Shown: positions 348-1,064, counted from the stretch's first letter. The stretch: 3,488 bases of DNA from a virus (IMGVR_UViG_2695420687_000014); one strand, 5' to 3'. The notes: generated from the sequence alone by a model not told the origin. Translations and numbers: made by a program.

Positions 348-1064
348 TTATCCGCCCGCACCATTAACCGTTACTGTACACGCATCAGAGGTAATGCTCT
401 GCGGCTGTTCTGCAGAATCCGTTACCTCGCAGGTATAAGCCCCCTTATCACCTGACTGCGCATTGGCTTTACTGAAAGTGTCAGTAGTCTGTCCCTCTAC
501 CGGCTGACCATCCTTCTTCCAGGCGTGTTTATAAGGCGGCGTTCCCCCGTTGACACTGACTGACATTGTCAGCAGCGCACCGGTATTCACGGTAAGTGTC
601 TTCTCCGGATTTTTCACAAACGCCAGCGGTACCACATAGGACACCGGTTTACCCTTCAGGCGAAGTGAAAACGTTGCAGCCACCACGCCGTTGGTACCGG
701 ATGACCAGGTGTGCTGACGCACTTCCGCCAGGAACTTAAAGCCCTTACCGGACGGAAACTGCACCTTAAACGCATACACCGTGTCATTGTCATAGGCATC
801 ACGCAGGGCGTTCTGGGCCTGATTCAGATAAAAATTACCCGACATGGAAATCTCGGACGACGCCCCCAGACCGTTGATGTTCTCCTGCTCTGTGGAGCAG
901 AGCGTGGTCACATCAATATCCTGTTTCTGACCGGCGGTGAACTGGACTTCCTTGATGGTGCAGTCCAGGCGCAGATATTCCGCCTTATCCATAGTTTCAG
1001 CAGTCACCGGGGCAGATGAAATCATCACCTGCGTCAGCTGTGAGCGTTCATACAAAGCAGACAT
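348..1064 (-). CDS. Major tail (tail tube) protein with in-frame C-terminal Ig-like domain
   Basis: 238-aa ORF, ATG at 1064-1062 preceded by a perfect AGGAGG, TAA at 350-348. N-terminal ~150 aa has tail-tube-like character. C-terminal ~85 aa carries Ig I-set-like motifs (GTPPYKHAWKKDGQPV and GAYTCEVTD). Gene order between tail completion protein and chaperone fits a major tail protein. Confidence 0.8.
   Translation of the reverse strand: MSALYERSQLTQVMISSAPVTAETMDKAEYLRLDCTIKEVQFTAGQKQDIDVTTLCSTEQENINGLGASSEISMSGNFYLNQAQNALRDAYDNDTVYAFKVQFPSGKGFKFLAEVRQHTWSSGTNGVVAATFSLRLKGKPVSYVVPLAFVKNPEKTLTVNTGALLTMSVSVNGGTPPYKHAWKKDGQPVEGQTTDTFSKANAQSGDKGAYTCEVTDSAEQPQSITSDACTVTVNGAGG

Follow-up and report, generated by a model that had tools for sequence, protein, structure and literature searches.

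The locus described here raises the question of whether the major tail protein of a phage carries an immunoglobulin (Ig)-like domain at its C-terminus and, if so, what this domain does on the tail. The window, by which we mean the whole 3,488-nt stretch of DNA that was analysed, contains genes on the minus strand only, and their ORFs, Pfam and PHROG matches show that together they make up the module for head-tail joining and the proximal tail in a lambdoid phage of HK97-like type (Table 1). Long-tailed Stx1a-, Stx2a- and Stx2c-converting phages match the window with 97-98% DNA identity over its full length, and the window belongs to a lambdoid prophage, HK97-like in type, in Shiga-toxin-producing E. 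coli. Of 5426 complete E. coli genomes, 1245 carry the tube gene, frequently more than once, and the order tail terminator, tube gene, tail assembly chaperone is common to HK97, BP-4795 and other relatives.

Table 1. Features of the window, counted from its first nucleotide, with residue numbers of the 238-aa tube protein where applicable.
Feature	Position	Strand	Basis or remark
Tail assembly chaperone, gpG-like	1-342	-	Pfam Phage_TAC_1, E = 7.8e-49; begins 5 nt after the tube gene
Divergent mosaic patch: distal Ig half (about codons 188-238), stop codon and short spacer	331..501	-	Sliding nucleotide identity
Major tail (tube) protein gene	348-1064	-	238 aa + stop
Ig-like domain, I-set/Ig_2/Ig_3 type, residues about 148-235	360..623	-	Pfam, model, Foldseek, PDB matches
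Linker, residues 140-147 (VSYVVPLA)	624..647	-	Homologue alignment
Tube-forming domain, residues 1-139	648..1064	-	Pfam, Foldseek, pLDDT
Shine-Dalgarno sequence AGGAGG	1069..1074	-	4 nt 5' of the tube-gene ATG; direct sequence reading
Terminator-like hairpin CCCGC-CGCGT-GCGGG, then TTTTTTATTA	1077..1101	-	Consensus scan; between the tail terminator gene and the tube gene
Tail terminator	1131-1475	-	Tail_completion_gp17 / tail terminator match
HK97 gp10-like protein	1472-1918	-	
Head closure protein Hc1	1915-2265	-	
Head-tail adaptor Ad1	2275-2601	-	
'Portal protein' (label in relatives), C-terminal part, repeat-rich	2598-3488	-	

The tube protein as a whole matches PHROG 158 ('major tail protein') with E = 6.8e-118. 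RefSeq uses the names 'major tail subunit' and 'immunoglobulin domain-containing protein', and for the purposes of annotation it is of value that both apply to the one tube protein. Its N-terminal part scored 25.4 bits against the Pfam family Phage_tail_2 (cut-off 23.8), while Phage_TTP_11, with 25.2 bits, stayed below its cut-off of 28.4. The tube fold of the lambda gpV N-terminal domain, which is Hcp-like, was recovered here by both profile and structural match, and Foldseek also matched the YDC107 tail core (9mfe_A) to this part of the protein. A PDB sequence search returned no relative of the tube domain at E <= 0.1; MglB, appearing with E = 0.6-0.9 only, was discarded as noise. The tube domain is followed by a short linker, at which tube-only relatives end and conservation collapses, identity to relatives mostly being 1-6 of 11 positions.

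The initial annotation placed an Ig-like domain, fused in frame to the C-terminus of the major tail protein, at positions 351-602, which on the minus strand correspond to residues 155-238 of the 238-aa ORF. Both the domain and the fusion are borne out. The tube gene is one uninterrupted ORF with the Ig-like domain in its zero frame, and a scan of the gene revealed no in-frame X_XXY_YYZ heptamer. Over residues 149-233, three Pfam families exceeded their cut-offs, namely Ig_2 (34.3 bits, cut-off 27), I-set (31.8 bits, cut-off 23.7) and Ig_3 (32.2 bits, cut-off 30), with E-values from 3e-8 to 1.6e-7, and the outcome was the same for the 84-residue piece alone. This piece also matched PHROG 158 with E = 1.8e-45 and PHROG 2973, 'Hoc-like' head decoration, with E = 2e-26. 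The Ig-like match is far beyond chance. The proposed extent needs a small correction, however: the place is right, but the domain starts about seven residues earlier, the I-set match beginning at residue 149 and the first strand at 148. The motifs that had been quoted in support are present as well, GTPPYKHAWKKDGQPV being residues 174-189 (498-545) and GAYTCEVTD residues 208-216 (417-443). Among the hallmarks of the fold, the protein has W182 in strand C and D206-K-G-A-Y-T-C212, i.e., D-x-G-x-Y-x-C, in strand F; V169, W182, G208 and D216 are nearly invariant across 42 homologues.

When the tube protein was searched against PDB sequences, the Ig part alone found relatives, and the phage proteins among them ranked before metazoan I-set proteins such as hemolin, sidekick and DSCAM. 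These phage matches comprised an Ig-like domain protein with four repeats (9ncf_S, E = 1e-34), the Hoc-like decoration protein gp20 of Shigella phage Sf14 (9c2d_S), T5-type pb10 and its C-terminal domain (8zvi_a, E = 1.2e-15, and 5lxk_A) and the Sf11 neck whisker (9occ_A). Either Big_2 or I-set had been expected from a profile search; I-set was found, together with Ig_2 and Ig_3, whereas Big_2 gave no Pfam match at E <= 0.1 with the whole protein or the 84-residue piece. The domain is of the I-set lineage, which also includes Hoc-like and T5 pb10-like head decoration proteins, and not of Big_2. Its sequence lineage includes the C-terminal domain of T5 pb10, T4 Hoc, Sf14 gp20, Moo19 and Felixounavirus proteins. 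The Hoc/pb10-type domains are attached to a capsid-binding domain and decorate the head, frequently as an array of 2-4 tandem copies, whereas the window encodes a single copy on a tail tube protein. They are solvent-exposed and flexible, and have been proposed to bind carbohydrates or mucus.

An AlphaFold2 monomer model, built from a 42-sequence homologue alignment (mean pLDDT 78), agrees with this division of the protein. The Ig part (pLDDT 91-97) forms an eight-strand beta-sandwich, with strands at residues 148-151, 156-160, 165-172, 179-184, 196-199, 208-215, 223-225 and 229-234, and is separate from the N-terminal domain. The structure thus consists of a tube domain plus an Ig sandwich, as had been anticipated, and the C-terminus is not folded into the tube core. 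Low confidence is confined to residues 1-8 and 45-67, and by analogy the latter may be a long loop that becomes ordered only in the assembled tube. In a Foldseek search of the PDB, the best full-length match was two-domain lambda gpV (7t4f_A, E = 4.3e-8; also 8iyk_D and 8iyd_A). The Ig part alone superposed on a human C2/I-type Ig domain (3bfo_A) with a TM score of 0.88 and an rmsd of 1.8 A, and on the Moo19 decoration protein (9d7z_K) with an rmsd of 1.3 A; N4 9lbz_q and 9e99 were further phage decoration matches. Viral library matches for the tube protein were major tail proteins, Hoc and 'outer capsid' proteins.

The first canonical cysteine of the Ig fold had been reported as missing, and our data are consistent with this. 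The stretch from residue 148 to residue 211 contains no Cys, and the B-strand Cys is absent, while C212 of strand F is kept. Judging by the hydrophobic pattern L165-M167-V169-V171 and by the I-set coordinates (protein residue 149 = profile position 3), V169 lies at the B-strand core position, where it probably replaces the Cys. The aligned phage relatives from the PDB likewise have no B-strand Cys. The canonical B-F disulfide, which is typical of the Ig family and not obligatory in it, is thus lacking here. A second cysteine, C229 in strand G, is common among homologues, as is C212, but the two do not strictly co-vary: C229 was lost independently of C212 in some homologues, and an obligatory disulfide is therefore unlikely.

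How far is such a protein already known? The closest described relative is ORF64 of the Stx1-converting phage BP-4795, to which BLASTP aligned the tube protein with 98% identity over all 238 residues, with four substitutions. The neighbours are the same too, with the tail terminator upstream and the tail assembly chaperone downstream. As deposited (6188-7033 of locus L009), ORF64 is 43 codons longer at its N-terminus and shares 71 nt with the tail terminator gene. The start that gives 238 residues has AGGAGG 4 nt upstream and agrees with HK97 gp12, and we regard it as more plausible than the deposited start of ORF64. HK97 gp12 itself shares the two-module architecture and the gene order, with 67% overall identity that is unevenly distributed over its parts: 81% in the tube domain, 50% in the Ig domain and 27% in the linker. 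Lambda gpV resembles the window protein in architecture, in its position in the tail cluster and in structure; however, its C-terminal domain is of Big_2 type and identity in the structural alignment is about 15%.

Both HK97 gp12 and BP-4795 ORF64 are listed as I-set-bearing major tail proteins in Table 3 of PMC9022992. The family of the window protein has thus been catalogued. In its treatment of phage Ig-like domains, PMC9022992 cites Fraser et al. 2006, by which I-set tube domains appear to have been catalogued already in 2006. The finding made here is a correct re-discovery, I-set tail tube proteins of HK97 type being already known, and its importance as a discovery is small, the protein being essentially BP-4795 ORF64. 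Only the series of tube proteins with the domain, without it and with two alleles of it, along with a divergent patch in the Ig domain, is mildly new.

This series became apparent in a tally of the tube domain with and without the Ig domain over the best 120 protein clusters. Tube plus Ig was found in 82 of the 120, while at least 14 were natural tube-only proteins of 147-154 aa, ending 7-14 residues past a conserved KGKP and sharing 74-82% identity with the tube domain of the window. Of the tube-only loci, one lies on a complete chromosome of Leclercia and another belongs to SaltyDalty (147 aa), an isolated Escherichia phage. We considered an Ig domain hidden downstream of such genes and rejected it for lack of room: at five tube-only loci, the chaperone gene begins 8 nt after the tube stop codon. 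Since tube-only relatives exist, one of them in an isolated phage, the Ig module is dispensable for tube building in proteins of HK97 gp12 type. The initial annotation had asked whether in relatives the domain is sometimes absent or is reached by a frameshift. The former proved true, while frameshift access to the Ig domain was not found in any of the relatives examined.

Some features of the tube-only loci may be recorded here. The tube gene occupies 4001-4444 in three of them (L002, L003 and L005) and 3001-3444 in L007. The head module differs from locus to locus, with a ClpP-type protease in L002 and L005 and an S78 protease in L003. Small extra genes lie between chaperone and tape measure in L002-L007, with a weak Zn-ribbon or YebO match in Pfam.

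Where the Ig domain is present, it differs more between proteins than the tube domain does. Across 38 full-length homologues compared with the window protein, mean identity is 75% in the tube part and 51% in the Ig part, and T5-like head decoration Ig domains share 43-52% identity with the Ig part, so that the Ig domain of HK97 gp12, at 50%, is no closer to it than these are. The Ig domain evolves as a separate module. With a dN/dS of about 0.1-0.25, compared with 0.03-0.18 in the tube part, it is under purifying selection and not drifting.

Taken together, these observations lead us to favour, with a probability of roughly 70%, the explanation that the protein is a two-module tube subunit bearing an accessory Ig adhesin. 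In such a scenario, residues 1-139 would polymerise around the tape measure protein as a stack of hexameric rings. The Ig domain is translated in the same frame, and therefore each tube subunit carries one. By analogy with the structures of lambda, T5 and SPP1, the domains would be displayed on the outer surface of the tail, six per ring. Scaling from lambda and from the 1080-aa tape measure of relatives, we estimate that a virion might have about 40 rings, which would amount to about 240 Ig domains. A dense array of multivalent weak binders would hold the virion reversibly on host surface polysaccharide or gut mucin glycans, and this holding would raise the odds of the tail tip meeting its receptor. 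For the array acting as an accessory, multivalent and weak adhesin in this manner, we would put the chances at roughly even, largely by analogy. Adherence has been put forward as a role of gpV, Hoc and pb10 in reviews (PMC9022992) and in the pb10 paper, for T4 Hoc as 'bacteriophage adherence to mucus'. Our literature search returned no experiment on HK97 gp12 or BP-4795 ORF64 and no report of glycan or mucin binding for proteins of HK97 gp12 type.

This explanation has to be weighed against three others, one of which concerns the way the domain is expressed. In other phages, the addition of Ig-like domains by programmed frameshifting has been documented (PMC9022992), and if the window gene were recoded, the Ig domain would be present on a fraction of the subunits and a short tube-only product would be made as well. 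The model for such an arrangement is the SPP1 tube protein gp17.1*, whose C-terminal Ig-fold module is optional, neither assembly nor infection depending on it (PMC9022992). There, however, a +1 programmed frameshift gives some of the subunits an FN3 module, while in the window an I-set domain is read in frame on every subunit, and no Ig module lying in another frame behind a slippery site was found. Shifts at the tube-Ig junction would add 4-39 codons before the reading frame ends, with no recognisable signal, and tube-only relatives have no Ig coding sequence that could be reached at all. It is true that several database relatives (P0012, P0030, P0090, P0091, P0099, P0103, P0117 and P0119) are out of frame within the Ig segment. 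We did not accept them as evidence of recoding: they break at differing places, and one of them also fuses the upstream gene. Two E. coli variants shift at or next to homopolymers (G5 at codon 173 and A5 at codon 151), while the Klebsiella variant proteins all shift after a WKK motif. The out-of-frame variants look like assembly errors or prophage decay, for example in the CP-933V copy (P0030). With the domain in the zero frame and no slippery heptamer in the gene, we reject recoding here as extremely improbable.

The other two explanations accept the domain on every subunit but deny that it binds anything outside the virion. The Ig domain might contact neighbouring subunits or rings and thereby stabilise or stiffen the tail, or it might aid polymerisation; purifying selection fits such a structural role just as well as a binding one. 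This is the main rival of the adhesin role, but it is weakened by relatives without any Ig domain whose tube domain shares 74-82% identity with that of the window, including an isolated and propagated phage, since their existence means that this tube fold assembles without it. The poor conservation of the linker also speaks against a structural role, and the exchange of the Ig domain between tube and head decoration proteins is hard to square with a co-evolved packing interface. We therefore consider it unlikely. It is also conceivable that the domain has no current function, having been spread by recombination and tolerated as harmless. Its natural loss in several lineages would fit, as would the frameshift-broken database copies (CP-933V P0030, and the P0012 and P0099 types). 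However, in two of the E. coli copies the break lies at or beside the G5 and A5 runs mentioned above, which points to assembly error or decay, and a passenger would hardly keep a dN/dS of 0.1-0.25 across alleles whose synonymous sites are saturated, nearly invariant W182, G208, D216 and V169 in 42 homologues, and a place in 82 of the best 120 protein clusters. Such a functionless domain seems very improbable to us. Overall, the two-module tube protein with an accessory adhesin is the explanation that we retain.

The alleles just mentioned became visible in a comparison of the window with a further prophage (L011). From base 2541 to base 91, nearly every 60-nt window outside the divergent patch shows 95-100% nucleotide identity between the two, whereas the patch, which is sharply bounded, shows 57-73%. 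In codons 196-238, dS reaches about 2.1 and is saturated, compared with 0.09-0.25 in the tube part, while dN/dS is about 0.1. This pattern indicates recombination with an allele that is old and functional. We also considered diversifying selection and a diversity-generating retroelement as possible origins of the patch, and rejected both in view of the low dN/dS and the saturated synonymous sites. Among the complete E. coli genomes, 543 records match with >=99% identity and 652 with 90-95%. If the 90-95% band represents the second allele, both alleles would be common, each occurring in roughly 550-650 of these genomes.

It is tempting to go one step further and to suppose that the distal half of the Ig domain is an exchangeable specificity cassette, the two diverged alleles binding different glycans of the host surface or gut mucus. 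Both alleles are under purifying selection in otherwise near-identical prophages of Stx type. This supposition is a long shot; were it true, the alleles would tune the sites at which Shiga toxin phages persist and the strains that they lysogenise. Regardless of the cassette, phages that carry Shiga toxin genes combine one tube domain with an Ig domain, with either of two divergent versions of that domain, or with none, which amounts to a convenient natural experiment. Tube proteins of HK97 gp12 type would thus be a good system for testing the proposed adherence of tail-tube Ig domains to surfaces or mucus.

Finally, we would like to comment on several other features of the window. The terminator-like hairpin and its T-run (1077-1101) adjoin the ribosome-binding site of the tube gene on its upstream side, and a weaker second hairpin is found at 1128-1144. 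The annotation of HK97 has putative terminators at the equivalent of the former position and also after gp12. In the window, by comparison, the chaperone gene follows the tube gene so closely that there is no space for a terminator after the latter, the spacer being 5 nt.

The left end of the window is chimeric. In 462 E. coli genomes, bases 1-40 find a match of 100% identity inside escC, the gene of the outer-membrane ring of the LEE type III secretion system, and prophage homology starts at base 39, so that the two parts of the escC-chaperone junction overlap by 2 nt. The chaperone ORF shares 99% identity with BP-4795 ORF65 up to residue 101 of 124 and is unrelated thereafter (BLASTP), because it runs into the escC-derived sequence and stops there. 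The junction could be a chimera of assembly or reads, or a real rearrangement that removed the 3' end of the chaperone gene. As the chaperone gene is cut by this junction, the copy in the window may not come from a functional phage.

At the opposite end of the window, positions 3064-3468 (minus strand) of the ORF labelled 'portal protein' contain 2.5 tandem copies of a 162-nt unit with 84% matches. Translated, the unit gives a repeat of about 54 aa with the pattern DGRDYDPDVL..AVNDAV..IP.P.DGKSITPDDVRPMLEQMV. In relatives, the label goes with PHROG 2271 and 1289. [quoted passage not shown] The 'portal' label of this segment looks doubtful.

The last observation concerns the tube domain. Its two cysteines, C35 (957-959) and C56 (894-896), co-vary among homologues: in 117 of these both positions are covered, and 112 of the 117 carry the two Cys, four have neither (A/G or H/G) and one has C/Y. 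C56 sits within the low-confidence long loop of the model. This co-variation suggests a paired role for the two residues, perhaps as a disulfide formed within or between tube subunits after release, or as a shared packing site.
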